Source: Escherichia phage phiEC1. From it: DNA of 64,000 nucleotides. Positions 10,258 through 63,385 of the stretch are shown in pieces. The stretch lies in sequence record KY608965.1, one strand, 5' to 3'. Under the pieces are notes generated by a model. That model was not told where the DNA came from and made no database searches. It saw nothing but the letters and a program-made list of their open reading frames with translations. The translations under genes and the position numbers were made by a program. The stretch's first letter is position 1; each line of letters begins with the position of its first letter.

Positions 10258-10893
10258 ATGGCGACATACTACAGATTGTATATTACAACATTTGAAACAT
10301 CCACTGGTATAAAGATTTATGGTGGTAAACACAAATCAGTTTACGAAGACCCTTCAAAAGACCCTTATACTGGGTCTGGTACCTTTATACGAAGGGCCAA
10401 AAGAAAATACGGTCCGTCTTGTATAAAAGAAATTATATGGTCTAAGCCATTTGAATCTAAAGCTCTAATGGATGAAGCTGAAGAGTTACTGGTAGATGAA
10501 TTATCCATTTTAGAAAATTGCGCAAATCTTGTTAAAGGTGGTGCAGGCGGAAGGTCGTATATTAACCCAGAAGATAATCCATCTATAGGACAAAAACGTT
10601 CAGCCCAATCTAAAAAGAAAATGTCTGACGCCGCAAAATCAAGAAAATGGACTGAAGAAGGGTTAAGAAAACGTAAAGAATCTACAGCAAGAATGTGGAA
10701 AGATTTCAAACATAGACATCCTGATTTTTCTGGTTCAAAAAATCCAGCAGCTCGAAAAGTTAGTGTAAATGGTAAAATATTTAACACCTGCAAAGAATGT
10801 GGTGAAGAATTTAATATCACATCAAGCGCGGTTATAGGCCGATGCAAAAACAACAAACCTAAATGGGCAGGATGGAATTATGTCGACGTATAA
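10258..10893 (+). CDS. GIY-YIG homing endonuclease (seg-like), inserted between genes 13 and 14
   Basis: N-terminal GIY-YIG-type motifs (YYRLYITT…[10 protein letters not shown]…YTGSG), NLVKGGAGG motif, Lys/Arg-rich C-terminal DNA-binding tail ending …[21 protein letters not shown]…WAGWNY, paralogous to the ORF at 62702..63385. Confidence 0.8.
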
Positions 10894-21285: not shown

Positions 21286-22854
21286 ATGACTACTATCAAA
21301 ACTAAAGCTCAGCTCGTAGACAAATGGAAAGAACTGCTGGAAGGTGAAGGCCTGCCGGAAATCGCTAATAGCAAGCAGGCTATTATCGCTAAAATCTTCG
21401 AAAACCAGGAAAAAGATTTCGAAGTATCCCCTGAATATAAAGACGAGAAAATCGCTCAGGCATTTGGTTCTTTCTTGACCGAAGCTGAAATTGGTGGTGA
21501 CCACGGTTATAATGCTCAGAATATTGCAGCAGGTCAAACCTCTGGTGCAGTAACCCAAATTGGGCCGGCAGTTATGGGTATGGTTCGTCGTGCTATTCCT
21601 AATCTGATCGCTTTTGATATTTGTGGTGTTCAGCCTATGAACAGCCCGACCGGTCAGGTATTTGCTCTCCGTGCAGTATATGGTAAAGACCCTATCGCTG
21701 CTGGCGCTAAAGAAGCTTTCCATCCGATGTATGCCCCAGACGCGATGTTCTCTGGTCAGGGTGCTGCTAAGAAATTCCCAGCTCTGGCTGCTGACACTAC
21801 TACTGTTGTAGGTGATATCTATACTCACTTCTTCCAAGAAACTGGTACTGTATATCTGCAAGCTTCTGCTATCGTAACACTTGATTCTGGTGCAACTGAT
21901 GCAGCTAAATTAGATGCAGAAGTTAAGAAACAAATGGAAGCTGGTGCACTGGTAGAAATCGCTGAAGGTATGGCTACTTCTATCGCTGAACTCCAGGAAG
22001 GTTTCAACGGTTCTACCGATAACCCATGGAATGAAATGGGCTTCCGTATCGATAAACAAGTTATCGAAGCTAAATCTCGCCAGCTGAAAGCTGCTTACTC
22101 TATCGAATTAGCACAAGACCTCCGTGCAGTACACGGTATGGATGCTGATGCTGAACTGAGCGGTATTCTGGCTACAGAAATTATGCTAGAAATCAACCGT
22201 GAAGTTGTTGATTGGATTAACTACTCTGCACAGGTTGGTAAATCTGGTATGACCCTGACTCCGGGTTCTAAAGCTGGCGTATTTGACTTCCAGGACCCGA
22301 TTGATATCCGTGGTGCTCGTTGGGCCGGTGAAAGCTTTAAATCTCTGTTGTTCCAGATTGATAAAGAAGCAGTTGAAATTGCTCGTCAAACCGGCCGTGG
22401 TGAAGGTAACTTCATTATCGCTTCCCGTAACGTAGTTAACGTACTGGCTTCAGTTGATACTGGTATTTCTTACGCTGCACAGGGCCTGGCTTCTGGTTTT
22501 AATACCGACACTACTAAATCTGTGTTTGCCGGTGTACTTGGTGGTAAATACCGCGTATACATCGACCAGTATGCTAAACAGGATTACTTCACCGTTGGTT
22601 ACAAAGGCGCTAACGAAATGGATGCAGGTATTTACTATGCTCCTTACGTTGCACTTACCCCACTGCGTGGTTCCGATCCTAAGAACTTCCAGCCGGTAAT
22701 GGGCTTTAAAACTCGTTACGGTATCGGTGTTAACCCGTTTGCTGAAAGTTCCCTGCAGGCTCCAGGTGCTCGCATCCAGTCCGGTATGCCGTCTATCCTG
22801 AACAGCCTTGGTAAGAACGCTTACTTCCGCCGTGTATATGTAAAAGGCATCTAA
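21286..22854 (+). CDS. 23: Major capsid protein gp23
   Basis: 522 aa (T4 gp23 is 521 aa); high codon bias; strong terminator downstream. Confidence 0.97.
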   Translation: MTTIKTKAQLVDKWKELLEGEGLPEIANSKQAIIAKIFENQEKDFEVSPEYKDEKIAQAFGSFLTEAEIGGDHGYNAQNIAAGQTSGAVTQIGPAVMGMVRRAIPNLIAFDICGVQPMNSPTGQVFALRAVYGKDPIAAGAKEAFHPMYAPDAMFSGQGAAKKFPALAADTTTVVGDIYTHFFQETGTVYLQASAIVTLDSGATDAAKLDAEVKKQMEAGALVEIAEGMATSIAELQEGFNGSTDNPWNEMGFRIDKQVIEAKSRQLKAAYSIELAQDLRAVHGMDADAELSGILATEIMLEINREVVDWINYSAQVGKSGMTLTPGSKAGVFDFQDPIDIRGARWAGESFKSLLFQIDKEAVEIARQTGRGEGNFIIASRNVVNVLASVDTGISYAAQGLASGFNTDTTKSVFAGVLGGKYRVYIDQYAKQDYFTVGYKGANEMDAGIYYAPYVALTPLRGSDPKNFQPVMGFKTRYGIGVNPFAESSLQAPGARIQSGMPSILNSLGKNAYFRRVYVKGI

Positions 22855-23206: not shown

Positions 23207-23236
23207 ATAGTATCACATACCAAATACGTTGTAAAC
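23207..23236 (-). promoter_or_regulatory. Early promoter for orphan ORF 22907..23176
   Basis: On - strand GTTTAC-N18-(TGTGA)TACTAT; back-to-back with late promoter of gene 24. Confidence 0.6.
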
Positions 23237-23276: not shown

Positions 23277-24560
23277 ATGAGTAAAATCCAAAAATTATTG
23301 CGTGAATCTACAACGTCTACTAGCAACTCAATCGGTCGCCCAAATCTCGTTGCTTTGACTCGCGCTACGACTAAATTAATATATTCTGACATTGTGGCAA
23401 CACAAAGAACTAATCAACCTGTTGCTGCTTTTTATGGTATTAAATATCTTAACCCAGACAACGAATTAACATTTAAAACTGGTGCTACTTATGCAGGCGA
23501 AGCTGGATATGTAGACCGAGAAAAAATTACTGAGCTCACAGAAGAATCAAAAGTCACACTAAATAAAGGTGATTTTTTCAAATATAATAATATCGTCTAT
23601 AAAGTGTTAGAAGATACGCCGTTTGCAGATATTCAGGAAAGTGATCTAGAATTAGCTCTTCAGATTGCGGTCGTTCATTTAAAGGTACGGCTATTTTCAG
23701 ATGCAGCGGTAACAAGCAAATTTGAAAGCTCTGGTAGCGAAATTTCTGATGCAAGATTCCAGATTAATAAATGGCAAACTTCAGTCAAATCTCGTAAACT
23801 TAAAACCGGCCTCACGGTTGAATTAGCGCAAGATTTAGAAGCGAATGGATTTGATGCCCCTAACTTCTTAGAAGATTTGCTTGCTACTGAAATGGCTGAT
23901 GAAATTAATAAAGATATTCTTCAGTCTTTAATTACTGTATCTAAACGTTATAAAGTTACTGGAATTACTGACACCGGATTTATTGACTTGAGTTATGCAT
24001 CTGCTCCGGAAGCAGGTCGTTCGTTATATCGAATGGTGTGTGAAATGGTTTCGCATATCCAAAAAGAGTCAACTTATACTGCAACGTTTTGCGTAGCTTC
24101 AGCTCGTGCAGCTGCTATTCTTGCTGCTTCTGGTTGGTTAAAACATAAGCCGGAAGATGATAAGTATCTTTCACAAAATGCTTATGGATTCTTGGCAAAT
24201 GGATTACCTCTTTACTGCGATACCAACAGTCCGTTAGATTATGTTATTGTGGGTGTTGTAGAAAATATCGGCGAAAAAGAGATTGTAGGGTCCATCTTTT
24301 ATGCTCCATACACTGAAGGAATGGATTTAGACGACCCGGAACATGTCGGTGCATTTAAAGTTGTAGTTGATCCGGAAAGCTTACAACCGTCTATAGGTTT
24401 ATTGGTTAGATATGCTTTATCAGCAAATCCTTACACAGTAGCAAAAGATGAAAAAGAAGCGAGAGTAATTGATGGCGGGGACATGGATAAAATGGCAGGA
24501 CGTTCAGACTTGTCTGTTTTACTCGGTGTTAAATTGCCTAAAATTATTATAGATGAATAA
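23277..24560 (+). CDS. 24: Capsid vertex protein gp24
   Basis: 427 aa as in T4 gp24; late promoter 23243..23250. Confidence 0.95.
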   Translation: MSKIQKLLRESTTSTSNSIGRPNLVALTRATTKLIYSDIVATQRTNQPVAAFYGIKYLNPDNELTFKTGATYAGEAGYVDREKITELTEESKVTLNKGDFFKYNNIVYKVLEDTPFADIQESDLELALQIAVVHLKVRLFSDAAVTSKFESSGSEISDARFQINKWQTSVKSRKLKTGLTVELAQDLEANGFDAPNFLEDLLATEMADEINKDILQSLITVSKRYKVTGITDTGFIDLSYASAPEAGRSLYRMVCEMVSHIQKESTYTATFCVASARAAAILAASGWLKHKPEDDKYLSQNAYGFLANGLPLYCDTNSPLDYVIVGVVENIGEKEIVGSIFYAPYTEGMDLDDPEHVGAFKVVVDPESLQPSIGLLVRYALSANPYTVAKDEKEARVIDGGDMDKMAGRSDLSVLLGVKLPKIIIDE

Positions 24561-26253: not shown

Positions 26254-27384
26254 TTATGGATATGTATAGATGATACCAGTTTCTAAAGCAGTTTTATTGA
26301 TGACGTATCCATTACGTGATTCTTGAACATCAACTTCCGGATAGTCTTTCATCATCTTCTGAAGCGTATAACGATGCAGGTAGTATTTACTATCTAGATC
26401 GTCAATTTTCCAATCTTTACCTTCTTCAGTCATTTTTTGGATTTCATCCATAACCCACCAACCGCACCAGATGTAAGCTGAAGTACGATGTGGAAGAGGA
26501 TGAACATAAGGTAATTCACCTTCTGGTTCCGGAGCAACTTTATCAGTCACTTGAACTTGACCTTCTGCTGTAATAGTTTTGCTATCATAGTCATCTGCAG
26601 TAACGATGGCAGTCACTTCAATAGTTTGACTTCCAACAGATGAAGTATCAACGGTATATACATTAGTTGACCCTTCTACAGGAGAAGAATCTTTCTTCCA
26701 TGAATATTCAATTTGCGCTTCTTCTGGGGCATCAGTGACATTAACAGTAAATGTAGCTGAAGCATCTTGCTGAACGTTAATAGAAGGAGGAGTCAATGTA
26801 ACCTGTGGATTCATTGTCTTCTTATTAACCGTTAATGATACTTCATTCGAAGTAACTTCCTTTGCATCATAATCTGTCGCAGTTACTTGAGCTACACATT
26901 TAATTCTTTTTACTCCACTTGTAGTTGGAGTATAGCTAAATGTAGAGTTAGTTTCTCCACCAACCTGTGAATCATCTACATACCACTGATACGTAGCAGA
27001 CGCTCCAGCCGGTTGAGAAGCTAAGGCAGCAGTAAATTGAACTGGGGTTCCAATTACTCCAGCTGAAGGACTATTGGGAGTTACTGCCAACGTAGTTGTC
27101 TGAGTTTTATTTTTAACCGTGATAGTCGTAGTAATTTCTGCCGTTTCAGCGTCAGTATCAGGAATAGTATTTGTTGCAACAACTTTAATTGTTTTTGTTC
27201 CGGCAGGTCCTTTTAACACATAATCAAAAGTTTCTGCCGATCCTACTTGAGGAGCATCATCCACAGTCCAAGCATATGTAATAGTTCCACCTTCAGTTTC
27301 ACCACTGGGAGTGGCAGTAAACTGCTTAGTCTCATCTATAACTCCAGTAGGTGTTTTAGGAGTTATATCAACTGTAAAAGCCAT
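26254..27384 (-). CDS. hoc: Highly immunogenic outer capsid protein Hoc (Ig-like domains)
   Basis: 376 aa as in T4 Hoc; matches recalled T4 Hoc including C-terminal capsid-binding region (…ELPYVHPLPHR…WCGWWVMDEIQ…). Confidence 0.93.
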   Translation of the reverse strand: MAFTVDITPKTPTGVIDETKQFTATPSGETEGGTITYAWTVDDAPQVGSAETFDYVLKGPAGTKTIKVVATNTIPDTDAETAEITTTITVKNKTQTTTLAVTPNSPSAGVIGTPVQFTAALASQPAGASATYQWYVDDSQVGGETNSTFSYTPTTSGVKRIKCVAQVTATDYDAKEVTSNEVSLTVNKKTMNPQVTLTPPSINVQQDASATFTVNVTDAPEEAQIEYSWKKDSSPVEGSTNVYTVDTSSVGSQTIEVTAIVTADDYDSKTITAEGQVQVTDKVAPEPEGELPYVHPLPHRTSAYIWCGWWVMDEIQKMTEEGKDWKIDDLDSKYYLHRYTLQKMMKDYPEVDVQESRNGYVINKTALETGIIYTYP

Positions 27385-38541: not shown

Positions 38542-38571
38542 ATAGTATCACACATCCATGTGTTTGTAAAC
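38542..38571 (-). promoter_or_regulatory. Early promoter overlapping the alt stop codon
   Basis: On - strand GTTTAC-N18-(GGATGTGTGA)TACTAT. Confidence 0.65.
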
Positions 38572-40658
38572 TATCCTTGGACAAATTTAAACGGAACTGA
38601 TTCTAAATCCATTAAAGATGCTAACAATTTCAAACCTTTAGGTGCACTAGTTTTTTCTACAAATGAGGAGAACGATACCGGCTCATCTGATTCGATTTCA
38701 CCCGTCATAGCAACCACCTCGCCTGTTTCCATGAGAACATCGCCATCATAAATGACGGCTTCATCCAACTGGTCTGAGGACATGACTTCAGCTTGAATAA
38801 ATTTAAGGTTGGATTCTAAACCTGCACCAGTATCAGATGACGCATCTGTAATTTTATTTATCTGCAAGAGAATGCCTCTAGGCAAAATAATTTCTTGCTC
38901 ATTAGGGTGATTACTCAACTGTCCTGGATAAATCACGTTAACTTTATGGGCGCCATCAATAGCCCATCCAACGTTAACACGGATTTGTTCTGGTGCATGC
39001 ATAGCTGTTCTTACTTGACTAGGAGAAATAGTAACACCTTCGTCATTATTGTCAATGTTAAGCTCTTTGCGAACTTCTTCAGGAGCAAGTCCAAGGGCAA
39101 CGTTCTCTTTAAACCCGCCAAAAATAATAGGAGCTAGTGAAGTGGAAACATAGTTTCTGAAGTAGAATACCTTATTTTTAACCATTGCTTCATAAATAGG
39201 CATTCTGATAGACTGGGCTCTATACAACGTTAGTCCTTCAGGTAAACGGTCTCCATTTAAAAACGCCGAATCAAGACCATCAATAGCGCGTTTAACTTCA
39301 TCTTCATCTGCAACATCGTAAAAATCTGGTTTATAACGACCTAACAACATATTATTGATATCGGTATACGCAGAAGAGGCATATTCACGAATAGCTCGTT
39401 TTTCAGCAACAGAGTATTGTTTAGGGTCCCGATTCATTGTTATATTAAAGGTGCCTCTAGCCGATTCTCGTGCATAAGTATACATCACATTAGACAAGAA
39501 CGCTGATTTACGTTGTTTCCAAGTTCTTTCAGATACTTCAGCTAAAACATCGTCAGGCAGTTGGAAATTATCACGTCTAAAATCTTCAAACCATTCGTCT
39601 CTAATAGAGTCTGCAATTTCGTTTGCAGCTTCAACAAAAGCGGCTAATGCTTTAACAGATGTTGTTTTTTCAGTTTTAATTTTCTTAGCAAACTTTTCTA
39701 AAGTTGGCTTAATAACACTGCCATAAGAAACTTCATCAGCAAATCTAAAGGATTCATCAATACGATTATAAATCTTATTTTCGATATCAGCAACTAAAGT
39801 GCCTTTTGCTGTGGACGATGCTTGGGCTAGTACGATTTCATATGCTTCAGGAAGTAATTCAGCTGTAGCTGGGCCACTAACTTCTTTAGCAGAATTTTCG
39901 TATTTCTGGAATAGCTCACCTTCTTGGCGGTCAGCTTCTAAAGATTGACTTGCTGCAATAGCGCGACGAGAAATTTTAGTACGAGCAATAACAGGCTTAT
40001 CTTTACGTTTTTCTTCTACAGCAGCAATAGAACCAGCGATAGCCGTTTCTTTGGTGACCTTTTCGCCAGTCTTTTTACTCACATAAACTTCACCAACATC
40101 AGAATCTACTTTCGTGTACAACTCTGTGTTAATGTTAGGGATGCCTTTAATATCTTCAATGTTGGCATTTTTACGAACCATCATCACATAGGTGTGTTTA
40201 CCTGTGAATTGATACATTGCAGACAATACTTTAAAACGACCACCAGTTTTAGTAGAAACTAAACGAGCAAGAAGAGTTTGAAGTTGTTGTCCACGTCCTT
40301 TCAATTTCTTAGTAGGGAATCGGAACAAAACTGCATCCATACGAAGAGCTTTAACCTGTTCATACACTGTATTGAAAATGGTGTTGATTGCATCAATAGG
40401 AGCAGGACCAAGACCATTTTTCAATTCGGCGAGATTACCCTTTTCAGAAAGACTCATAATAACGACATGAGCGTATTTGTCACCAAGTTTAACTTGTTTT
40501 ACAGCATCTCCTTCGGAAAGGTAAGAGAATAAACGAACTACGATGTTTGTATCGATATCACCAATTTTCCAGACTTGTGGAACTTTAGCTTTAGGGTTCA
40601 AATTGACGACAGGAAGACTGCCTTCAGATTCAAACACTTCATTTAATTGTTCAGACAT
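38571..40658 (-). CDS. alt: Alt ADP-ribosyltransferase (packaged, modifies host RNA polymerase)
   Basis: 695 aa; ART-type R / S-T-S / E motifs (LTLYRAQ…VSTSL…EQEIILPRG); C-terminus …PFKFVQG; synteny next to gene 54. Confidence 0.9.
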   Translation of the reverse strand: MSEQLNEVFESEGSLPVVNLNPKAKVPQVWKIGDIDTNIVVRLFSYLSEGDAVKQVKLGDKYAHVVIMSLSEKGNLAELKNGLGPAPIDAINTIFNTVYEQVKALRMDAVLFRFPTKKLKGRGQQLQTLLARLVSTKTGGRFKVLSAMYQFTGKHTYVMMVRKNANIEDIKGIPNINTELYTKVDSDVGEVYVSKKTGEKVTKETAIAGSIAAVEEKRKDKPVIARTKISRRAIAASQSLEADRQEGELFQKYENSAKEVSGPATAELLPEAYEIVLAQASSTAKGTLVADIENKIYNRIDESFRFADEVSYGSVIKPTLEKFAKKIKTEKTTSVKALAAFVEAANEIADSIRDEWFEDFRRDNFQLPDDVLAEVSERTWKQRKSAFLSNVMYTYARESARGTFNITMNRDPKQYSVAEKRAIREYASSAYTDINNMLLGRYKPDFYDVADEDEVKRAIDGLDSAFLNGDRLPEGLTLYRAQSIRMPIYEAMVKNKVFYFRNYVSTSLAPIIFGGFKENVALGLAPEEVRKELNIDNNDEGVTISPSQVRTAMHAPEQIRVNVGWAIDGAHKVNVIYPGQLSNHPNEQEIILPRGILLQINKITDASSDTGAGLESNLKFIQAEVMSSDQLDEAVIYDGDVLMETGEVVAMTGEIESDEPVSFSSFVEKTSAPKGLKLLASLMDLESVPFKFVQG

Positions 40659-40902: not shown

Positions 40903-42395
40903 TATAAACCTGTCTGGGACCACGGTCCGAATACGTCTTCAAATGAATCCGCTTCTGTTTTATCAAAACGGAACCCTTTAATAATTGGAAGGAAAATACC
41001 TACAGTACCTTCACGGCCTTTAGAATGAACCCAACCATTACATTCGCAATCAGCAATACGTCCAATCAATTTACCTTCACGAGCTTCAGCCATTAATCGT
41101 TCACGGTCTAAATCATGACGCTCATCTAAAGGAATAAGAACCTTTACACCATCAACTGTTTTATGAGTTGTATCTTTAAACCCTGAACCACAATCGGTTG
41201 TAATACGACGACAACGTGATACGAGTTCGACACCACCTAATTTGTTAGGGTCTTTAGAGTGTTCGTAGTATCCTACAACTTCTAAAGCGATATCAATAAC
41301 TTCTTTAAATTTAATTAGGTTCTTAGAGCGTTTGTTTTCCCAATATGAATCACGGTTTTTAAGGATAATACCTTCAAGACCTTGGTCAACATATTTTTTA
41401 TAAACCACTTTAGCTTCGTCAAGATTACGAACTAACTGATTTTCAATTGGCTCAATTCGCTTAAAGCCTTCAGCCATATTTTCAAGAGCAGCAAAACGAA
41501 CATCGTATTTCTGACCTTTAATTTTGCCATCAGAATAGACTTCATCTAAAGGAACATAGTCCCAGGCTTGAAGAACCATACCTTCCGCTTCTTTAGGAGA
41601 AATAGTCCCTTGAAGAGATTTATTTGCTAAACCGTTTGAAGTGCTACGGTCTGCAACTTGTACTTCTTCAGATTCTTCATTATCACCAAATAAGAACGAC
41701 AGGTCATTTCCTGAGCTCACAGCCTTTTTAATATCAAATGAATGATAAACCAATTCACCGTCGATTAAAACCCCATTAGGGTGTTTTTCACGGGCTTCTT
41801 TAGTCATTTCCATTAGTTCATCTGCTAATAGGGTAAGACCATGGTATTCATTACCAGCACGAGAAAAGAATTGAACACCGTCATCACGAACTTCAGCGAA
41901 ACAACGAGCACCATCTGCTTTTAATTGAGCAAATGCAGGCCATTTAATATTTTTAGTAATCAATTTCTCGTCATATGCAGATGCTAACATCTGCGGTTGC
42001 AATTGAATAAGTCCAGGCCATACCTTATTCGCGATAGACACTGAAGCACCTACTTCAAGGTCTCGCATCATTACACGACGTAGTACTTCTACATCATCAG
42101 GTTTACCGTCAGCGATATAACCCATGAGCTCTTTAATTGCTGCATTACCAGTGAGCTTACGAGTGGCTAATGTGAACTCAATAAAATCCAACATGTCATC
42201 TAATTCAAGAAGGCCATACGCTTGAGACCTTTCACCTGGTCCTGGCCATTTCTTAATATAATACTGAATGCCACGTGCATACGTTAAACGATATACACGT
42301 TCAAGTAATTTGTTGTCCTTATTTTTCTTAAGGATTTCCTGTTTTGTTTTAGTAGAACCGATCGCAGCTATTTGGTTTAAAATATCTAAAATCAT
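40902..42395 (-). CDS. 30: ATP-dependent DNA ligase gp30
   Basis: 497 aa; adenylation motif KADGARC; matches recalled T4 ligase. Confidence 0.95.
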   Translation of the reverse strand: MILDILNQIAAIGSTKTKQEILKKNKDNKLLERVYRLTYARGIQYYIKKWPGPGERSQAYGLLELDDMLDFIEFTLATRKLTGNAAIKELMGYIADGKPDDVEVLRRVMMRDLEVGASVSIANKVWPGLIQLQPQMLASAYDEKLITKNIKWPAFAQLKADGARCFAEVRDDGVQFFSRAGNEYHGLTLLADELMEMTKEAREKHPNGVLIDGELVYHSFDIKKAVSSGNDLSFLFGDNEESEEVQVADRSTSNGLANKSLQGTISPKEAEGMVLQAWDYVPLDEVYSDGKIKGQKYDVRFAALENMAEGFKRIEPIENQLVRNLDEAKVVYKKYVDQGLEGIILKNRDSYWENKRSKNLIKFKEVIDIALEVVGYYEHSKDPNKLGGVELVSRCRRITTDCGSGFKDTTHKTVDGVKVLIPLDERHDLDRERLMAEAREGKLIGRIADCECNGWVHSKGREGTVGIFLPIIKGFRFDKTEADSFEDVFGPWSQTGL

Positions 42396-42661
42396 TTGAT
42401 ATCCTCGATTTTGGTTACGGTTCTATTATAAGCCACTTCATCTAGAAGCGATTTCAGCGTTTTCTGATAAGTGGTAATCCATTTACCGAGTCCTTCAACA
42501 TAATATTCTGAAATGTAGATGAACCCTTGTTCAACACACTCTTTAAATATTTCTGCGTCTTTTACTGAACGAAACACCGGCCAGTCTCGAAAGAACATGT
42601 TAACATGACCGTAGTCACGTGTGGTGTTTTTGCCATCTGTAATATCATGAACTACAAACAT
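42392..42661 (-). CDS. Hypothetical protein (30.x accessory cluster)
   Basis: 89-aa ORF with ATG; 4-nt overlap with ligase start. Confidence 0.55.
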   Translation of the reverse strand: MFVVHDITDGKNTTRDYGHVNMFFRDWPVFRSVKDAEIFKECVEQGFIYISEYYVEGLGKWITTYQKTLKSLLDEVAYNRTVTKIEDIK

Positions 42662-42670
42662 AATTAGCCC

Positions 42671-43486
42671 TTAACAATTTATAGACCAAGTCCATTTGGA
42701 CGAATCTAAAGGAAAGTTTTGAATCGTCCACCATGGCTGCATATCGGTTGGTCCTGGAGTTCGCCAAGTATACGGATTCGACGGAGCGCCAATTTGATTA
42801 GGCCATGCACCTGGGCTTGTTGCACCTGATTCTTTAAGCAAATCCGCCAATCGTTTTAAAAGGTCTTCACGATCTGAATCTGAATTATGCTCAGGTGGAA
42901 TCAAACGAGATTCAATATCATCCCACGTGTGTACACGTTGTGCAGTGCGAGGAATATCATCACGTTCACCACGAGCCAACCAATAAATCGGTACATTAAG
43001 AATTTCTGCCGCATGGTCACAATGATGAGCTAAATCGTCAACGTAACAAATTACGTTATATTTTGTTTTAGCTAGTTCGAATAATTGTTCCTTTGAAGAA
43101 TCATGACCACACATCATTACTTCAGAGAAAGCGCCTGGGAACAAAGCATTCAAATTAAATTGTCTATTCAATCGAGCATCAATTGAATCACCTAGCGCCG
43201 TCACGGCTACAAAATTATAGTCTTCTTTTAGTTTATTGATAACTCGAAGAGCATCAGAATAAGGCGCTAAGTAACGAATAAAATCAGAGCTATTATATTT
43301 TTCTATTAATTGTTTACCAAGGTTATCGTCGGTATTGAACAGTTTACCAGGAGAAATAAATTTTTCGTCCTGAATCATTTTTAAAATATGTTCTAATGGA
43401 AGATTATATTTTTGGGCAAAATAAGGAAGTCCAGATTGCCAACTTAAACATACACCATCAATATCAGTCAAAATAGTAGGCTTCAT
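42671..43486 (-). CDS. HAD-superfamily hydrolase-like protein with Trp/Pro-rich C-terminal extension
   Basis: N-terminal HAD motif I ILTDIDGV, later hhhDD motif ICYVDDLAHH; ATGA overlap with upstream ORF. Confidence 0.6.
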   Translation of the reverse strand: MKPTILTDIDGVCLSWQSGLPYFAQKYNLPLEHILKMIQDEKFISPGKLFNTDDNLGKQLIEKYNSSDFIRYLAPYSDALRVINKLKEDYNFVAVTALGDSIDARLNRQFNLNALFPGAFSEVMMCGHDSSKEQLFELAKTKYNVICYVDDLAHHCDHAAEILNVPIYWLARGERDDIPRTAQRVHTWDDIESRLIPPEHNSDSDREDLLKRLADLLKESGATSPGAWPNQIGAPSNPYTWRTPGPTDMQPWWTIQNFPLDSSKWTWSINC

Positions 43487-43941
43487 AAAGAGTCTCTTAA
43501 TAGGTTTAACACATCAACAAATTCAGTTTCGGTTAGTATTGTATCATCTTTTGTTAGGTGGCTAGCCATGCTGTGCTTCAAAATTTTTCCTTTAGAGGCT
43601 TGTAAGGCATCACGAAATCCCTTATTTTGGATCGCTGCTTCAAAATATGCATTTGTGTATAATTCTTTCCACGCTTCAGAGTATCTTGAAAATGGAACTC
43701 CCAACCAGAAGAGGGTCCCACGGTCCTGAGCTCTTGCATAAGACCTTCCAGCTTGTTGGGCGGCAAGCCCGGATAGTCCAAATATACGTCTTTGTTGTTC
43801 AACATTTTTCACCTTACATCCTTGGAGAAACCCTTCAAGACCTCCGAATTGAATACCGTCCATAACAAAAGGCCATTGAGCAAAGTTACTTAATGCACAT
43901 GACGGCCACTTAAAATTACTTCTTATTTCTAATTCAGACAT
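43483..43941 (-). CDS. NADAR/YbiA-like (DUF1768) domain protein, putative ADP-ribose processing enzyme
   Basis: Motif …LSNFAQWPFVMDGIQFGGLEGFLQGCKV… resembles the YbiA/NADAR core (SNFA-WP…DG…E…Q-K); start taken at first ATG, a GTG at 43950 is also possible. Confidence 0.5.
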   Translation of the reverse strand: MSELEIRSNFKWPSCALSNFAQWPFVMDGIQFGGLEGFLQGCKVKNVEQQRRIFGLSGLAAQQAGRSYARAQDRGTLFWLGVPFSRYSEAWKELYTNAYFEAAIQNKGFRDALQASKGKILKHSMASHLTKDDTILTETEFVDVLNLLRDSL

Positions 43942-44149
43942 CTTTAACACTTATAATTTCAACATCAGCCCAATGACCATAACCAGGTATACGATCTTCG
44001 ATAGATAAATTTCCGTCATTTTTAGGTAGTTTAATCGATGTGATATACGGTTCTAAATGGTCTTCTGTATGCGGAGAAACATCTGTCACACGATAAGTAA
44101 CTTCAACCATTTCCGTACCAAACAATTTCTGGATTAGTTTATTCAACAT
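43934..44149 (-). CDS. Hypothetical protein
   Basis: 71-aa ORF with ATG, overlapping neighbours in an operon-like array. Confidence 0.5.
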   Translation of the reverse strand: MLNKLIQKLFGTEMVEVTYRVTDVSPHTEDHLEPYITSIKLPKNDGNLSIEDRIPGYGHWADVEIISVKDV

Positions 44150-44336
44150 GTTTCAACCCTTTAATAGGAGATAACTCTTTACCCATACGTATGTCAGAAG
44201 TCCAATCAACCCATTGAACAGCATACGCTTCATTGATAATTCCAGCGGCGGTTTTAAATTCAGGGAGAACTTTAAAAATCACCCCAGGAATTCCAACACC
44301 TTTTAATTGGACTGTTTGTGCTATTAAAAATTTCAT
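44139..44336 (-). CDS. Hypothetical protein
   Basis: 65-aa ORF with ATG; candidate early promoter 44361..44391 upstream. Confidence 0.5.
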   Translation of the reverse strand: MKFLIAQTVQLKGVGIPGVIFKVLPEFKTAAGIINEAYAVQWVDWTSDIRMGKELSPIKGLKHVE

Positions 44337-44360
44337 ATTTTTCCACTTAGTAAAGAAATC

Positions 44361-44391
44361 ATTATACTCTAATCCGTCCTTGGATGTAAAC
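44361..44391 (-). promoter_or_regulatory. Candidate early promoter
   Basis: On - strand GTTTAC-N19-TATAAT; long spacer lowers confidence. Confidence 0.4.
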
Positions 44392-45005
44392 TACTTAACG
44401 AAATTAATTTCTACCGGATGAACAACAGGTTGAGCAGTGATATATTGAGTAATTGCTTTCATGACTAGAGCTTCAGAACCAGGATTTTTCTCAACGAATT
44501 CACGTGCTTGGTTATGAGCTTCAAGTTCACTTAGTAAACCACTTCGTTGGCATCCACGGTCTTGAGTACCCTGTTCAGATAAAAAGACGACGATGTATTT
44601 TTCATCGTCATAAGATTTAGACGGTTGAGCAAATGTTCCTTTACTTCCGAAAGGAGAGTTATGACGCCACATCACGCCGTGAGGAGTTTCAACCTTCGTA
44701 TATTCGTGCGGGCCATTTTTCTTAATTTCTTGATGTGGAACTTCATGGACCTTAGGGTTAGGACATTCAATAAAATGCTCGTCTAAATCGGTCGAGAATA
44801 TTAAAGTAAAACAATTACTGAATTTACCAACACCTGCCTGATAAATTTTACCTTCAGAAGTTCTAATTTCACAAACTGAGCCGGCATCAGTAACTTCTAA
44901 AACTTCAAAAGGCTCGATAAGGTCATATGAGAACATGTTTTTAAGGCGTGGAGTAATATCCCCATTTTTAAAATTCATTTTATAAAAAGTATTAACTTTA
45001 AACAT
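44391..45005 (-). CDS. Hypothetical protein
   Basis: 204-aa ORF with ATG; His-rich central region; GC hairpin upstream. Confidence 0.6.
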   Translation of the reverse strand: MFKVNTFYKMNFKNGDITPRLKNMFSYDLIEPFEVLEVTDAGSVCEIRTSEGKIYQAGVGKFSNCFTLIFSTDLDEHFIECPNPKVHEVPHQEIKKNGPHEYTKVETPHGVMWRHNSPFGSKGTFAQPSKSYDDEKYIVVFLSEQGTQDRGCQRSGLLSELEAHNQAREFVEKNPGSEALVMKAITQYITAQPVVHPVEINFVK

Positions 45006-45040
45006 AATTTCCTCAGTGGGAGCCGAAGCTCCCAGTTAAA

Positions 45041-45406
45041 TTAGATATCGAATTCATTAAGAACTACATCAAAGATTGCTTCCAGGTGTTCAGGTTTAGC
45101 TCGGTTGCTCAGGATGTGACGAATCCAAGTTTTAACCAGAAGCTTACGATTAACACCGTTCCAGCAAGGATGAGTACCTAAATCACGCTGACGGAAATCG
45201 TCATCTAATGCAATTTTGAAGTTGGAACCTTCCATCGTGATTGAAACCGTGATGCCATTTTCAAATCGCATATAAACGTAATTAGGAGTCATGCACTGTT
45301 CGATTTCACATACTGAACCATTTTTATGTTTCCATAAGCAAATAACTTCAGAAGAACCAGCGATACCGTTAGAAACATATTTACGTTCGAAGTTGATGTA
45401 GTTCAT
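45041..45406 (-). CDS. Hypothetical early protein
   Basis: 121 aa from ATG at 45406 (track ORF begins at an upstream TTG that overlaps the promoter); promoter 45448..45476. Confidence 0.6.
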   Translation of the reverse strand: MNYINFERKYVSNGIAGSSEVICLWKHKNGSVCEIEQCMTPNYVYMRFENGITVSITMEGSNFKIALDDDFRQRDLGTHPCWNGVNRKLLVKTWIRHILSNRAKPEHLEAIFDVVLNEFDI

Positions 45407-45434
45407 TTTATTCTCCAGATGTTTAAGTTGTTTG

Positions 45435-45469
45435 TTGGTACAGGTATATAATAACATAACCTGTACCAA
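45435..45469. repeat. 11-bp perfect inverted repeat bracketing the -10 of an early promoter
   Basis: TTGGTACAGGT (45435..45445) and ACCTGTACCAA (45459..45469) separated by 13 nt containing the -10. Confidence 0.85.
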
Positions 45470-45476
45470 AGTAAAC
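45448..45476 (-). promoter_or_regulatory. Early promoter for ORF 45041..45406
   Basis: On - strand GTTTAC-N17-(TGT)TATTAT; -10 bracketed by an 11-bp perfect inverted repeat. Confidence 0.65.
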
Positions 45477-45480
45477 TGTT

Positions 45481-45849
45481 TTATGCAACTTTAATCCAAT
45501 TGTCTAAATTTAAAACACCTTTGGCTTTCATTTTTTCGATCAGGTTATCTGCTGTAATGCGTCCATTTTGATACCATGTAACATCTTCAGAGTAACCAGT
45601 TTCTTCGTCAACATATGTTTCTGAACGAATTTTACCTGTAATAATAGTTTTTAATTCGTATGTGTCACCTGTGAAAAAGTTTGCTAACACAATTTTCCAA
45701 GAGAAATCATCAGAAGGACCTTCAGGGGTCATACAACCTACGAACTCAAATTGCTCTTTGTATAACATCCACTGGAATTCTTTAATTTCGATAGCTTTAT
45801 AACCGTCGTGGTCTTTACATTTGATGTATGAGTTCAGATTGATTTTCAT
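45481..45849 (-). CDS. Hypothetical early protein
   Basis: 122-aa ORF with ATG; early promoter 45891..45919. Confidence 0.6.
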   Translation of the reverse strand: MKINLNSYIKCKDHDGYKAIEIKEFQWMLYKEQFEFVGCMTPEGPSDDFSWKIVLANFFTGDTYELKTIITGKIRSETYVDEETGYSEDVTWYQNGRITADNLIEKMKAKGVLNLDNWIKVA

Positions 45850-45890: not shown

Positions 45891-45919
45891 ATAGTAACAC
45901 ATCCTACAGGAGAGTAAAC
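45891..45919 (-). promoter_or_regulatory. Early promoter for ORF 45481..45849
   Basis: On - strand GTTTAC-N17-(GGATGTGT)TACTAT. Confidence 0.65.
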
Positions 45920-45949: not shown

Positions 45950-45974
45950 CACAAAAGGGAGACCGAAGTCTCCC
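45950..45974 (-). terminator. Rho-independent terminator after small basic ORF
   Basis: On - strand GGGAGAC-TTCG-GTCTCCC followed by TTTTGTG. Confidence 0.8.
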
Positions 45975-45979
45975 TAAAA

Positions 45980-46159
45980 TTATGCAACAACCTTTCCAAA
46001 ACGAGAAGCATCATCTCGAAGAACTGCACGTGCTCTGCGCATGATCTTCTCAACTGTTTGATTAATACGAGAGTTCGACCCACGCTTGTATCCAGCGCGT
46101 TTAGAGGTACCATCAACTTTCTTTTCAACTGCTTTCTTTGCTTTAGCTTGTTTTGCCAT
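45980..46159 (-). CDS. Small basic hypothetical protein (59 aa), not in the supplied ORF track
   Basis: ATG at 46159; translation MAKQAKAKKAVEKKVDGTSKRAGYKRGSNSRINQTVEKIMRRARAVLRDDASRFGKVVA; followed immediately by a canonical terminator. Confidence 0.5.
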   Translation of the reverse strand: MAKQAKAKKAVEKKVDGTSKRAGYKRGSNSRINQTVEKIMRRARAVLRDDASRFGKVVA

Positions 46160-46322
46160 TATAAATTCTCTTTAAATGAAAATGCAGGACTTATTGACAT
46201 TGCCTGCGCAAGCCCTCAAGGGGAACATAGGTTTTGGGTATTTAACGACAGGATAACCATAAACCCGTCATCATACCTACCATGACTTACACAGCTAACC
46301 TTTTGCTGACGCATGATAGCAA

Positions 46323-47383: not shown

Positions 47384-47965
47384 TTATTCACCACAAAAGT
47401 TTCGGATTTGTTCCCAATTCAGAGAACGAAGATTATTACGAGAGTACTGAATTACTTCAATACCAGCTTGTTTTAGAATATCTGCCCAATTTTCAGGAGA
47501 TCGGTCGTATAATTCTGCGTATACAACCTTTTTAATACCTGACTGCGTAATAGCTTTAGTGCAATCAGGACACGGAGAAAGCGTAGTATATAACGTAGCA
47601 CCTTCAATAGAATTACCTTTACGAGCGGCAAACAAAATTGCATTCAATTCTGCATGGATTTCATTATTAGCAGACCATGCACTATGAGCAGCTCGATGTT
47701 CTTTGGCTAAAACAAAATTATCTACCCGTCCAAATGCTGTAGTGCCTTCTTTATGTCCAGCAACGATGACTGGGATTGGTTTATTCTTCAACCAACCATT
47801 TTCAGATGCATGTTCGCAACAGTTAACGCCACCTGCAGGTGAACCGTTATATCCAGTAGAGATAATGCGTCCATCTTTTTCAATGACGGCACCAACTTTC
47901 CATGAACAACATTTTGATTCTTGAGAAATCAGATATGCAATCTGAAGGTATGTGCTAGCTTTCAT
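47384..47965 (-). CDS. cd: dCMP deaminase
   Basis: 193 aa; zinc-binding deaminase motifs HAELNAI and PCPDC; matches recalled T4 Cd. Confidence 0.95.
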   Translation of the reverse strand: MKASTYLQIAYLISQESKCCSWKVGAVIEKDGRIISTGYNGSPAGGVNCCEHASENGWLKNKPIPVIVAGHKEGTTAFGRVDNFVLAKEHRAAHSAWSANNEIHAELNAILFAARKGNSIEGATLYTTLSPCPDCTKAITQSGIKKVVYAELYDRSPENWADILKQAGIEVIQYSRNNLRSLNWEQIRNFCGE

Positions 47966-48957
47966 TATTGAACCTTATTAATATAAGTTAACAGCTCTTT
48001 AGTTTGTTCCCAACTGATGCACGCATCGGTAACGGAAACGCCATAGGACATATTATCAGAAATTTTTTGATTTCCTTCATGTAGGAACGATTCTATCATA
48101 ATTCCTTTGACCAAATCATTAGCTGCTAAATTTTTACCAATACCAATTTGATTGCTATAATGCCCATCAGCGTTTGCATGGCTACAGTCAACCATTACAT
48201 AATGATTCAGACCTACTGCCCTTGCTTTGTTAGAAGCTTCTTGAATATCAGAAGAATGATAGTTCGGGCCGTTGGTCCCGCCACGCAATACGATATGCGT
48301 ATTCTGATTACCTTCAGCTTCAACAATGCCTACAGTACCATCGACGTCCATACCCATATACCGATGAGGCCAGGCGGCACTATACATCGCGTCTGTAGCT
48401 ACTTTAATAGAACCATTGGTTGCGTTCTTGAAGCCTACGCACATCGGTAGACCTGAAGCAATTTCACGATGTGTCTGACTTTCAGTCGTACGGGCGCCAA
48501 TAGCAACCCATGAGAAAATACCAGAAAGATACTTAATCGTGAATGGGTCTAATACTTCAGTTGCTAATGGAAGTCCCATACGTAGAAGTTTACGACACAA
48601 TGTTCGTGCAACTATAAGACCGTGGTTCATATCAAAACTTCCGTCAAGATATGGATCATTTACAAGACCTTTCCAACCTACGGTAGTTCGAGGCTTTTCA
48701 AAATAAACGCGCATCACTAACAGAACATTAGGAAGACGAGTTTGAAGTTCAGCCAGACGTTTGCCGTATTCAACAGCAGCAATAGGGTCATGAATTGAAC
48801 AAGGACCTACAACAATAAGTTTGCGTGGGTCTTCACCGTTCATAATCGAATTAACTTGTTCGCGATGAGAAGCCACTTGTGATGCGTAAGCTTCCGACAA
48901 AGGAATAATCTCAGCCAGTTCTTTTGGAGAAATAAGTTTTCCGACGACAGGTAACAT
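47965..48957 (-). CDS. 3-deoxy-D-arabino-heptulosonate-7-phosphate (DAHP) synthase, class I (AroG/AroF/AroH-like)
   Basis: 330 aa; blocks GPCSIHDP, MRVYFEKPRTTVGWKGL, IGARTTESQTHRE, VGFKNATNGS, IVLRGG…PNY, SHAN, ESFLHEGNQ, ITDACI matching recalled E. coli AroG; stop overlaps cd start (TAATG). Confidence 0.93.
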   Translation of the reverse strand: MLPVVGKLISPKELAEIIPLSEAYASQVASHREQVNSIMNGEDPRKLIVVGPCSIHDPIAAVEYGKRLAELQTRLPNVLLVMRVYFEKPRTTVGWKGLVNDPYLDGSFDMNHGLIVARTLCRKLLRMGLPLATEVLDPFTIKYLSGIFSWVAIGARTTESQTHREIASGLPMCVGFKNATNGSIKVATDAMYSAAWPHRYMGMDVDGTVGIVEAEGNQNTHIVLRGGTNGPNYHSSDIQEASNKARAVGLNHYVMVDCSHANADGHYSNQIGIGKNLAANDLVKGIMIESFLHEGNQKISDNMSYGVSVTDACISWEQTKELLTYINKVQ

Positions 48958-49343: not shown

Positions 49344-49373
49344 ATAGTATCACAACTCCACCATGTTGTAAAC
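49344..49373 (-). promoter_or_regulatory. Early promoter upstream of ORF 49078..49314 (and probably the DAHP synthase-cd operon)
   Basis: On - strand GTTTAC-N18-(GTTGTGA)TACTAT. Confidence 0.65.
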
Positions 49374-52874: not shown

Positions 52875-52904
52875 ATAGTATCACCATCCTTGGTGTTTGT
52901 AAAC
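52875..52904 (-). promoter_or_regulatory. Early promoter for alc
   Basis: On - strand GTTTAC-N18-(GGATGGTGA)TACTAT. Confidence 0.65.
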
Positions 52905-54057: not shown

Positions 54058-54087
54058 ATTGTACCACAATCCTTGTGGTATGTAAAC
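54058..54087 (-). promoter_or_regulatory. Early promoter for rnlA, overlapping denA stop
   Basis: On - strand GTTTAC-N18-TACAAT. Confidence 0.6.
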
Positions 54088-62055: not shown

Positions 62056-62709
62056 TTAATACTTACATGATTTGATTGTTTCTATGAACAATTTCTTAGC
62101 AGCATTTCCATCGATTTGAAGTATTTTTCGATATGCCTTTAATTTGGTAGAATAATTTTGCCAGACTAAATTGTCAGTAAGTTCGTCATGCTTATCTATA
62201 ATATTCAAGAATGAATCCAACAACAAGAAGGTTTCAAATGAAATTATATTGCTTTGTAGCAATTTGAATATGTAGCTCGACTGAACGTTGTTATTATAAT
62301 CAAATATCTCTTGAAGCGCACTAACTTCAACTTTCTTACTGAAATAGTAGATGTTACGTACGTCTTCGGCAAATGTCTCTTTAGCTTGTTTGAGACGTCC
62401 AATATATTCCCTATAGAAAACTAATGCATCAGCGTCTGATATCTCACCAATCCATGCGTCTTGGTTAGCAACTAAGTTGCTTATGAATATCAAGGTGAGT
62501 TCCTTCAATTTATATTTCTCTGCTAGTTTTTCAAAGAAATATTTATCTCGGCGTTTTTGATACGCATTATCCGAAACACGCATGCACCAGTTATATTTGA
62601 TTACGTCATACCGACCACCAAAATGGTTTTTGCACATCAAGTATAGTTTATATACCGATTTTCCATTAATATAACGTTCTCCATCAGGAGGCATGCGTAT
62701 TTTAATCAT
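62056..62709 (-). CDS. 59: Helicase loader gp59
   Basis: 217 aa as in T4 gp59; matches recalled T4 sequence (…YKLYLM…YDVIKYNWCMRVSD…). Confidence 0.95.
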   Translation of the reverse strand: MIKIRMPPDGERYINGKSVYKLYLMCKNHFGGRYDVIKYNWCMRVSDNAYQKRRDKYFFEKLAEKYKLKELTLIFISNLVANQDAWIGEISDADALVFYREYIGRLKQAKETFAEDVRNIYYFSKKVEVSALQEIFDYNNNVQSSYIFKLLQSNIISFETFLLLDSFLNIIDKHDELTDNLVWQNYSTKLKAYRKILQIDGNAAKKLFIETIKSCKY

Positions 62710-63385
62710 ATTTCCATCCGGACCATTTTGAAGATTTAAGTCTATATGTAACTAAAGACGCAGAAATATTAAAAACATTTGAAACTTCTTTACACGAGGC
62801 GTATTTTATACCATCAATAATTATAGGTTTTTGTTTTTTAATAGTTCTTTCTTTAGAATGCGACTTTGAATTTGCTATTCTAAGAGCTTCTTTGGTTGAA
62901 TCAGGCATCGGCTTATTCGTTTTTCGCCCTTTTCGGACTTTACTCAAGGCCAATTTGTGAGCTTCAGATAGTTTCTTACCCTTATTAGGTGACGGTATTT
63001 TTCTTTCTAGTCTTGTTTTAGATACTTTAGCCTTAGTCTCTTCAGATCTAGGTTTACCTAATTTAGAAAGTGAAATAGACCTTTTAGCTTCATCACTTTG
63101 TTTTTTACCAGGACCACCTTTACCACCGGGAACTAAGTTATAAGTATCATCTCGCAAAACAAAATCTTCGTTAACCAATTCTGCTTCTTTTTTATAGGCG
63201 TCCTTGTCATTATCATATTCATAAAGAATTTCGGTATAAAAATTTTTTAGTCCATATTTAGCTTTGGCCGCTAATATAGCGCGGCCTGATCCAATATACC
63301 AATCTTTCTCTTTATGTTTTTTGTGTACGCCTATATAAATTTTACCATTTATTTTATTGGTAGTTTTATACACAACGTATTTCAT
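62702..63385 (-). CDS. GIY-YIG homing endonuclease (seg-like), inserted between genes 33 and 59
   Basis: N-terminal GIY-YIG motifs (YVVYKTTNKINGKIYIGVHKK…WYIGSG), NLVPGGKGGPG, Lys-rich C-terminal DNA-binding tail …SCKEVSNVFNISASLVTYRLK…WSGWKY. Confidence 0.85.
   Translation of the reverse strand: MKYVVYKTTNKINGKIYIGVHKKHKEKDWYIGSGRAILAAKAKYGLKNFYTEILYEYDNDKDAYKKEAELVNEDFVLRDDTYNLVPGGKGGPGKKQSDEAKRSISLSKLGKPRSEETKAKVSKTRLERKIPSPNKGKKLSEAHKLALSKVRKGRKTNKPMPDSTKEALRIANSKSHSKERTIKKQKPIIIDGIKYASCKEVSNVFNISASLVTYRLKSSKWSGWKYD

Follow-up and report, generated by a model that had tools for sequence, protein, structure and literature searches.

What is the run of small genes that lies between the DNA ligase gene 30 and rIII in Escherichia phage phiEC1: an unrecognised island of accessory functions or a known phage locus in another guise? 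We examined this interval within a 64-kb stretch of the phage genome (record KY608965.1), called the window below, whose own coordinates are used throughout. At 42392-45849 on the minus strand, the open reading frame (ORF) list holds eight consecutive ORFs of 89, 271, 152, 71, 65, 204, 121 and 122 amino acids (aa), with exactly the sizes that a first-pass annotation of the DNA had given; the 152- and 121-aa lengths are those of the ATG-start versions, which agree with T4. That annotation counted eight genes between gene 30 and rIII and took the whole interval for a hypervariable accessory island. There are nine genes, as 30.9 (45980-46159, 59 aa) had been overlooked, and the interval is already known as the early 30.x cluster of T4 and is not an unrecognised island. 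Very probably it is the Mosigvirus version of the T4 30.1-30.9 cluster, a conserved scaffold carrying two cassettes that have been exchanged by recombination.

The identity of the locus follows from synteny, from gene-by-gene orthology with T4, and from DNA identity to Mosigvirus relatives. The DNA of the region is 98% identical to that of Escherichia phage LF82-x and 96-97% identical to that of more than 100 other deposited phages, and the taxonomy line of a close relative, OL960576, reads Mosigvirus, the genus of RB69. Judged by these relatives, the window phage is a Mosigvirus, that is, an RB69-like T-even phage. Set against the T4 reference annotation (RB69 and SA79RD were also compared), the interval is syntenic with T4 genes 30.1-30.8, and next to it come 30.9 and rIII; in a tblastn map of 21 loci its position between gene 30 and rIII, its strand and its gene order are all as in the T4 cluster. 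Eight T4 orthologues sit in the same slots, namely 30.1, 30.2, 30.3, 30.4, 30.5, 30.7, 30.8 and 30.9 (blastp E 1e-17 to 1e-135; 37-96% aa identity). The direction of transcription is also shared, as are the coupled stop/start junctions at 30/30.1, 30.2/30.3, 30.3/30.4 and 30.4/30.5. The ORFs had been described as joined by overlapping stop/start junctions, and this applies to four of the eight junctions (-4, -4, -8 and -11 nt); the remaining four are spacers of 9, 54, 35 and 74 nt. The window departs from T4 in that the place of gene 30.6 (95 aa, phrog_2153) is taken by a 204-aa gene that is unrelated to it and brings an early promoter, the allele of 30.8 is of another class (37% identity), the tail of gp30.2 is unlike that of T4, and the spacer between rIII and 30.9 is shorter.

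Read outwards from the ligase gene, all on the minus strand, the cluster begins with the gp30.1 orthologue (42392..42661, 89 aa; DUF3045, PF11243 E=1e-26; phrog_2054; 58% identical to T4), whose stop and the ligase start share 4 nt. The orthologue of gp30.2 follows (42671..43486, 271 aa; 70% identical to T4 gp30.2 by blastp), and then gp30.3 (43483..43941, 152 aa; PF08010 E=4.5e-69; 95% to T4), gp30.4 (43934..44149, 71 aa; phrog_2042; 52% to T4 and 81-89% within the genus) and gp30.5 (44139..44336, 65 aa; 64% to T4), which is absent from RB69. The 204-aa protein (44391..45005; phrog_17531) occupies the slot of gene 30.6 of T4 and RB69, and blastp finds no match between it and T4 gp30.6. Beyond it lie gp30.7 (45041..45406, 121 aa; PF06919 E=1e-51; 94% to T4), gp30.8 (45481..45849, 122 aa; PF06019; 37% to T4) and gp30.9 (45980..46159, 59 aa; phrog_1427; 96% to T4), the last with an isoelectric point of 11.4 and 18 lysine or arginine residues among its 59.

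All eight of the ORFs originally listed are real conserved genes (PHROG E 2e-28 to 6e-145), and each has a PHROG family, annotated in every case as 'unknown function'. Pfam families match four of them: DUF3045 (30.1), Phage_30_3, Phage_T4_Gp30_7 and Phage_30_8. The first-pass annotation had named the 204- and 122-aa ORFs as the largest uncharacterised members; the 122-aa protein belongs to PF06019 (Phage_30_8), and the larger protein is the 271-aa gp30.2, which has no demonstrated function. It had also raised the case that every ORF might prove to have an annotated T4 orthologue of known function: seven of the eight have a T4 orthologue, the exception being the 204-aa gene, and a function is known for one of the seven, so that this case holds in part. 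An NCBIfam scan of the ORFs returned insignificant matches only (E at least 0.03), searches of the interval for tRNAs and tandem repeats found none, and the plus-strand ORFs of the interval are short, antisense to conserved genes and without independent support. We found no functional literature on gp30.1, gp30.2, gp30.6, gp30.8 or gp30.9.

The member of known function is gp30.3. The T4 protein was renamed AdfN (anti-DarT factor NADAR) in 2025 by the LeRoux laboratory (Nat Commun; PMC11825919), and the T4 allele encodes an ADP-ribosylglycohydrolase of the NADAR family that acts on DNA and removes the ADP-ribose installed on phage DNA by DarT1 and so defeats the DarTG1 defence (PMC11825919). 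The gp30.3 of the window is 95.4% identical to T4 AdfN over all 152 aa and scores 231 bits against PF08010, for which the cut-off is 36. Seven substitutions distinguish it from the T4 allele, and in the alignment the catalytic residues E36 and K43 are kept and the C-terminus (...TILTETEFVDVLNLLRDSL) is complete, such that the residues and the C-terminal helix needed for full activity are all present. The earlier label 'NADAR-like' was therefore correct, and the gene encodes a characterised counter-defence enzyme rather than an unknown. Comparison of gp30.3 with PDB sequences gave no match at E<=1, and the assignment of the NADAR fold is taken from PMC11825919.

RB69, the type species of the same genus, is reported to be uniquely sensitive to DarTG1, a T insertion at nt 411 having shortened its adfN product by 15 residues; full-length 30.3 is reported in every other phage of the panel, and the Mosigviruses Bas46 and Bas47 are reported to be resistant (PMC11825919). 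We confirmed the extra T of RB69 by alignment and found that it does not occur in the window, so that the frameshifted, weakened adfN of RB69 stands against a full-length allele here. Because this adfN is full length and retains E36 and K43, the window phage is predicted to be resistant to DarTG1, unlike RB69.

How variable, then, is the interval? The gene order 30.1-30.9 is maintained in the T4-like, RB69-like, SP18-like and JS98-like groups (21 loci), and real variation is confined to two cassettes; the interval as a whole is not hypervariable. The view that all of it is an accessory island, made up of genes for host takeover and anti-defence that evolve fast, nevertheless has features of the locus in its favour. 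AdfN is an anti-defence gene, the products of 30.8, 30.4 and 30.1 are only 37-58% identical to those of T4, and the genera do not all have the same genes in the slots of 30.5, 30.6 and 30.6A; gene content differs strongly in Karamvirus CkP1, whose locus is far more different. Hyperplastic regions composed of such small early genes are, moreover, described in papers from the Krisch laboratory. We consider this view improbable, as gene order and content are kept in all four T-even lineages sampled and the sliding-window identity of the region to RB69 is 95-100% except in three places: part of 30.3 and 30.4 (83-88%), the slot of 30.5 and the 204-aa gene, which is missing from RB69, and 30.8 (62-73%). 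In addition, 30.3, 30.7 and 30.9 are, at 94-96%, among the genes of the window most similar to T4, and in every non-Mosigvirus T-even locus of the sample gp30.7 is still 93-98% identical at the aa level.

Selection on these genes also argues against such an island. Within the genus, the ratio of nonsynonymous to synonymous substitution rates (dN/dS) is 0.00-0.43 wherever substitutions permit its estimation, 0.00-0.23 for most genes, and 0.02-0.06 for 30.3, 30.7 and 30.9. By this measure all members of the cluster are under purifying selection, which is strong for most of them (0.02-0.2). The proposed role in host takeover or anti-defence holds for 30.3, as AdfN acts against DarTG1, and we found no evidence that ties any other member to either activity; none of the nine proteins matches a PADLOC defence profile at E<=0.1.

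At the 30.x locus, RB69 itself is an exception within its genus. It is without 30.5 and the 204-aa gene, and its adfN is frameshifted. Its 30.6 (positions 5894-6175 of the RB69 locus in our comparison, L003) is 93% identical to that of T4, as against 58-73% for most neighbouring early genes, and its 30.8 (L003 6663-7034) is a private allele with 57% identity to those of other Mosigviruses and a synonymous divergence (dS) of ~2.

If the scaffold is conserved, the question becomes why some of its genes resemble T4 so much more closely than does the rest of the window. For most genes of the 64 kb, the proportion of synonymous sites that differ from T4 (pS) is saturated, at 0.63-0.85, whereas it is 0.32 for 30.3, 0.19 for 30.9, 0.42 for rIII, 0.39 for gene 31 and 0.48 for 30.7. 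In sliding windows, T4-like blocks of 86-98% identity alternate with DNA that is at background level or non-homologous. These blocks cross gene borders, one comprising the 5′ part of 30.2 together with 30.3 and another 30.7 with its promoter, and they take in non-coding DNA, as in the block of 30.9 and its spacer (94-98%). The closest relative outside the genus also changes from gene to gene, being T4 for 30.3, 30.9 and 31, a JS98-like uncultivated virus genome (UViG) for 30.7 (98%), and SP18-type phages for 30.8 (87-89%, compared with 57% for RB69 and 37% for T4). Within Mosigvirus, the dS of 30.3 is 0.19-0.38, near its dS versus T4 (0.41). Because synonymous divergence is low in a few genes, because the blocks cross gene borders and because the nearest relative changes gene by gene, the pattern indicates recombination between genera, in which co-infecting T-even phages repeatedly exchanged homologous DNA. 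The same recombination would have spread near-identical segments of 30.3, 30.7 and 30.9 across genera. In laboratory co-infections of RB69 with T2 or T4, small segments were transferred exactly at 30.3, and adfN was located in this way (PMC11825919).

The similarity of 30.3, 30.7 and 30.9 to T4 might instead reflect purifying selection, or overlapping coding or regulatory constraint, and not exchange between genera. The low dN/dS of the three genes would fit such an explanation. So would the presence within 30.3 of the alternative-frame ORF 30.3′ (43578..43805, minus strand, 75 codons; 81% identical to T4 30.3′), a doubtful gene whose T4 counterpart is listed as an 'early' protein in a proteomics table (PMC9697503 supplement). 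Constraint at the nucleotide level does exist at this locus, as a non-coding segment of ~118 nt upstream of 30.9 (46160..46278, minus strand; 90-96% identical in all T-even loci sampled) is conserved even where gp30.9 has diverged. We regard constraint as a distinctly unlikely explanation for the three genes, since their synonymous divergence is two to four times below the saturated background and the high-identity block outruns 30.3′ on both sides, reaching 30.2. The 30.3′ frame, for its part, is broken at codon 34 in five further loci of Mosigvirus, that of RB69 among them, and at codon 13 in SP18 and locus L012, and its ATG is missing in many loci. With the ORF broken in most Mosigviruses and in SP18, we rejected 30.3′ as a conserved overlapping gene behind the low dS of 30.3. 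Nor does constraint alone keep 30.3 at 95%, as the gene is only 84-86% identical in SP18-like and JS98-like loci, and the part of 30.3 at 43717-43866 is nearer to T4 (91-95%) than to RB69 (85-88%).

The segment at 46160-46278 is kept even in SP18-like and JS98-like phages with gp30.9 at 70-74%, and is possibly a recombination anchor or regulatory DNA. The spacer between rIII and 30.9 matches no Rfam family, and a structured RNA there was rejected given also a minimum free energy z-score of -0.58 and compensatory change in 0 of 25 predicted pairs. A further non-coding block of ~130 nt, AAATCGAGGAGCCGTCGAACTGTC...GACAGTTTTACGGTGTACCTC, with long-range complementarity, lies downstream of rIII in T4 (locus L001, ~4660-4790), RB69 (L003, ~7465-7600), the JS98-like UViG and SP18. 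It is absent from the window, which has a short spacer (46279-46322), and from loci L002 and L008, whose spacers match that of the window over their full length; when the T4 region containing the block was scanned against Rfam, nothing was found there. Elsewhere in the window, hoc (26254-27384) has an unusually low pS versus T4 of 0.31 and may be another segment exchanged between genera. Gene 23 (21286-22854) and gene 24 (23277-24560) have pS values of 0.37 and 0.47, which the codon bias of high expression may explain. The Alt-like ADP-ribosyltransferase (38571-40658, minus strand), at 41-44% identity to T4 Alt, is the most diverged large gene among those compared.

From the alignments, the variable cassettes of the cluster are two: the 204-aa gene, which brings an early promoter of its own and stands in place of 30.6, and the ORF of 30.8. 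At 30.8, base-level alignment limits the divergence to the ORF, between its Shine-Dalgarno (SD) sequence and ATG on one side and the promoter and stem-loop of 30.7 on the other. The SD-start sequence GGAGAATAAAATG is common to all five phages aligned, and the downstream promoter and stem-loop, GTTTACTTTGGTACAGG...ACCTGTACC, are the same nearly base for base in the window, RB69, T4, SP18 and locus L014. The 204-aa gene has its hairpin position, its SD and its first two codons (ATGTTTA) in common with gene 30.6 of RB69, T4 and SP18, and this stretch is the upstream junction of its cassette. Because the sequences part at codon 3 and are homologous again from precisely the ATG of 30.5, the swapped module would extend over about 44337-44998 and comprise the ORF and the early promoter that lies downstream of it. 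The deletion in RB69 runs from the ATG of 30.5 to just before the start of 30.4.

Of the two cassette genes, 30.8 belongs to a widespread family. Its product scores 149 bits against PF06019 (cut-off 25), is found in more than 1,000 phage genomes, and carries the motif C-x-T-P-x-G-x-S-x-D-F, which is invariant in 31 diverse members. The window allele is of the SP18/IME08-type class of this polymorphic cassette gene. The classes are deeply diverged and cross genus lines: IME08 has the window type (90%) and JS98 the T4 type (40%), two phages that we take to belong to the same genus. The confidently predicted fold of gp30.8 has no relative in PDB or BFVD.

The junctions of both cassettes resemble promoter-early stem-loop (PeSL) elements. 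As described by Arbiol et al. 2010 (PMC2839356) and Comeau et al. 2014 (PMC4122927), these combine a stem-loop with a TTTACW-N17-TAYWAT promoter, an SD and an ATG, which flank swapped ORFs in the hyperplastic regions of T4-type phages. At the 30.x locus, a stem-loop, an A/T-rich stretch, a TTTACW-N16-18-TAYWAT promoter, an SD and an ATG likewise adjoin replacements or deletions between close relatives, and the divergence breakpoints lie at these motifs at base resolution. The complete layout is found upstream of 30.8, where a hairpin (45974-45957) and a promoter (45919-45891) are followed by GGAG and the ATG. A difference from PeSL elements is that the stem-loop before 30.7 spans the -10 region. 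No mention of the 30.x locus was found in the parts of PMC4122927 consulted.

The other cassette gene, that for the 204-aa protein, is far more narrowly distributed. The protein is conserved at more than 94% identity in 113 phage records, essentially those of Mosigvirus other than RB69. A word-indexed search of 5.8e9 proteins found the family to consist of two 90%-identity clusters, an exhaustive HMMER scan of 1.84e9 representatives yielded seven relatives, and a profile search made to deepen the alignment returned only four proteins. With a dN/dS of 0.14-0.43, the protein is, by these comparisons, a Mosigvirus-restricted near-orphan under purifying selection. It was previously described as His-rich, and the enrichment is mild (8 His in 204 aa, 3.9%), with six of the residues between positions 77 and 115. 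Its sequence can be divided into a beta-rich N-terminal module (~1-80), a His-bearing linker and a C-terminal module (~90-195) resembling gp30.6A. The C-terminal module, WRHNSPFG...GTQDRGCQRSGL...NPGSEA, matches stand-alone proteins of 118-152 aa, with 66% identity to SP18 gp30.6A and 46% to CkP1_0226. The likeness to gp30.6A (TuIa, SP18) is placed at residues ~129-190, where the 66% identity to the SP18 copy includes GTQDRGCQRSGL and NP.GEA. By contrast, gp30.6A has 116 aa, is without the N-terminal module, and lies between 30.8 and 30.9 rather than between 30.7 and 30.5. The N-terminal module matches the protein P0008 and, more weakly, the products of three tandem CkP1 genes at the same locus with a like overall architecture.

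Several proposals for the origin or function of this protein were examined and set aside. It is not a fusion of a diverged gp30.6 with gp30.6A, as the gp30.6 proteins of T4, RB69 and SP18 belong to phrog_2153 and are unrelated to the N-terminal module. That module is not a paralogue of gp30.7 or gp30.8 either, in spite of a shared 'GSVCEI' and similar N-termini, since hhalign gave probabilities of 0.2-2.6%. A structure-based assignment of function was abandoned, as the AlphaFold2 (AF2) model, built from eight sequences, had a mean predicted local distance difference test (pLDDT) score of 50.6 and was unusable, and a profile search of PDB gave nothing meaningful for the protein (best match 3r3p, E=0.045). 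Our working guess, made with low confidence, is that the protein acts early and binds some component of the host or of its defences. That the gene is an insertion in decay or without function, whether a selfish or a junk cassette, is very unlikely: the narrow distribution, the dN/dS above that of the neighbouring genes, the low AF2 confidence and a truncated 115-aa variant in phage G2469 would suit this reading, but a full-length ORF so closely conserved in 113 genomes, with dN/dS clearly below 1, a proper SD (GAGG), a place in the early transcription unit of 30.7, and a sharply conserved C-terminal motif common to homologues in other genera, would not, and T4 gp30.6, which fills this slot in T4, belongs to the proteins made early.

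The first-pass annotation held that several of the genes have their own early promoters, and three T4-type early promoters, of the sigma-70 kind, were located, preceding 30.8 (45919-45891), 30.7 (45476-45448) and 30.5 (44390-44361). In the window, GTTTAC-N15-18-TANNAT is present 10 times where 1.25 copies would be expected (8-fold), every time on the minus strand. The promoter for 30.8 (45891..45919, minus strand; GTTTACT...TACTAT), identified by the motif scan, is followed by the SD ccGGAGaataaaATG. That of 30.7 (45437..45476, minus strand; GTTTAC-N-TATTAT) contains an embedded PeSL-like stem-loop, GGTACAGGT...ACCTGTACC, and forms the downstream junction of the 30.8 cassette. The promoter for 30.5 through gene 30 (44361..44390, minus strand; TTTACA-N18-TATAAT, matching 11 of 12 consensus positions) lies in the swapped cassette. 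Here G44391, the final base of the TAG stop of the 204-aa gene, precedes the -35 hexamer to give GTTTACA. This promoter is annotated in OL960576, and the DNA at this place has no homology to T4, RB69 or SP18. Short inverted repeats in the -35/-10 spacer, for example CACATGGATGTG, CACCAAGGATGGTG and CCACAAGGATTGTGG, also occur in other early promoters of the minus strand (23207-23236, 38542-38571, 49344-49373, 52875-52904 and 54058-54087) and resemble the promoter/stem-loop composites of the PeSL papers.

Two hairpins were read directly from the minus strand. One, after 30.9 (45957..45974), is an intrinsic terminator, GGGAGAC-UUCG-GUCUCCC followed by UUUUGUG; the other, after 30.7 (45018..45033), is GGGAGC-UUCG-GCUCCC without a T-run, followed by the SD GAGG and ATGTTTA. 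Both are annotated as terminators in OL960576 and ATK48. The SD of 30.7 is ctGGAGaataaaATG, with a RegB-type GGAG, and the sequence GGAGaataaaATG precedes both 30.7 and 30.8 as their SD. T4 30.7 has the same GGAG, and its early mRNA is cleaved by RegB at GGAG within the SD (PMC9409239).

Taken with the T4 data, the motifs suggest that 30.1-30.9 form a block of small non-essential genes transcribed leftwards to DNA ligase. The 30.8 promoter would drive 30.8, the 30.7 promoter would drive 30.7, the hairpin and the 204-aa gene, and the 30.5 promoter would drive the translationally coupled series 30.5-30.4-30.3-30.2-30.1-30. Expression classes were taken from a T4 transcriptome and proteome time course and concern the T4 orthologues only (PMC9697503 supplement). 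In those data, RNA is early for 30.1-30.9; protein is early for 30.4-30.8, middle for 30.1 and 30.2, and late for 30.3, and 30.9 is the sole 30.x gene without detected protein. By orthology, we infer early expression of the 30.x genes in the window phage.

The largest protein of the cluster, gp30.2, consists of a highly conserved N-terminal core of ~195 aa and a genus-specific C-terminal tail of ~75 aa. HAD motifs I-III of the core, DIDGV (D8, D10), T96 and K132, are invariant in all six aligned sequences, and the motif IV residues DD150-151 are invariant in the five that reach this position. On the basis of these motifs, gp30.2 is most likely a HAD-type phosphatase. It is like the phosphatases of the 5′(3′)-deoxyribonucleotidase type in that its four HAD motifs are correctly ordered, and differs from them in the additional tail and in scores that are not significant: the match to Pfam HAD_2 has E=0.013 (16 bits), and the other weak matches are to TIGR01428 (E=0.093) and to the 5′(3′)-deoxyribonucleotidase structure 2jao, the best sequence match in PDB (E=0.17). 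An attempt to assign a HAD subfamily by a PDB profile search returned noise, in the form of clathrin-assembly proteins at E ~0.4. The tail (the last ~75 residues, 42671 to ~42900) is rich in Pro, Trp, Gln and Asn and cannot be aligned between genera, in contrast to the nearly invariant core, and it looks like a swapped or rapidly evolving part of a conserved enzyme.

Several points weigh against parts of this account. The canonical PeSL order is found in one of four elements, that upstream of 30.8; the other three are partial: in one the promoter has the stem-loop inside it, and the remaining two consist of a lone stem-loop and a lone promoter. Crossovers may use the highly conserved flanks together with the composite stem-loop/early-promoter/SD-ATG motifs, in the manner of PeSL elements, and ordinary homologous recombination in the conserved flanks explains the data equally well. 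Low dS is noisy in very short genes such as 30.9 (58 codons), and nucleotide-level constraint could explain part of the conservation, as in the non-coding segment upstream of 30.9. The HAD membership of gp30.2 lies under the Pfam threshold (cut-off 23.8). Finally, both expression and AdfN activity in this phage are extrapolated from T4.

Other genes of the window bear on its content outside the cluster. An ORF of 330 aa (47965-48957, minus strand) immediately beyond dCMP deaminase carries, in the records of close relatives, the annotation Tyr-sensitive DAHP synthase (phospho-2-dehydro-3-deoxyheptonate aldolase, aroF). T4 has cd.1 at this place and RB69 cd.2, and neither has such an auxiliary metabolic gene at this position. 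Two further ORFs, at 10258-10893 (plus strand, 211 aa) and 62702-63385 (minus strand, 227 aa), are 31-40% identical to the region of T4 segD, a GIY-YIG homing endonuclease gene. They lie at positions not used in T4, between genes 13 and 14 and between genes 59 and 33, and are probably mobile seg-like endonucleases.

The main value of these findings is one of clearing, in that the stretch can be filed under the T4 30.x early cluster. The segments carrying adfN, 30.7 and 30.9 appear to stem from exchanges between Tequatrovirus and Mosigvirus that are far younger than the background of the genome, and counter-defence alleles would thus circulate as a shared pool among T-even genera. With an intact adfN, the phage should resist DarTG1, unlike the type species of its genus. 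The two cassettes, with junctions defined at base level, are rational targets for deletion or swap experiments against panels of defence systems. It is a tentative idea, and one we think possible rather than probable, that both cassette genes encode counter-defence proteins or triggers of host defence, with folds not yet represented among solved structures. If so, the genus-crossing alleles of 30.8 and the tandem Karamvirus paralogues of the 204-aa family would be footprints of an arms race with host immunity, left in cassettes that stand two to five genes from a proven anti-DarTG1 gene.

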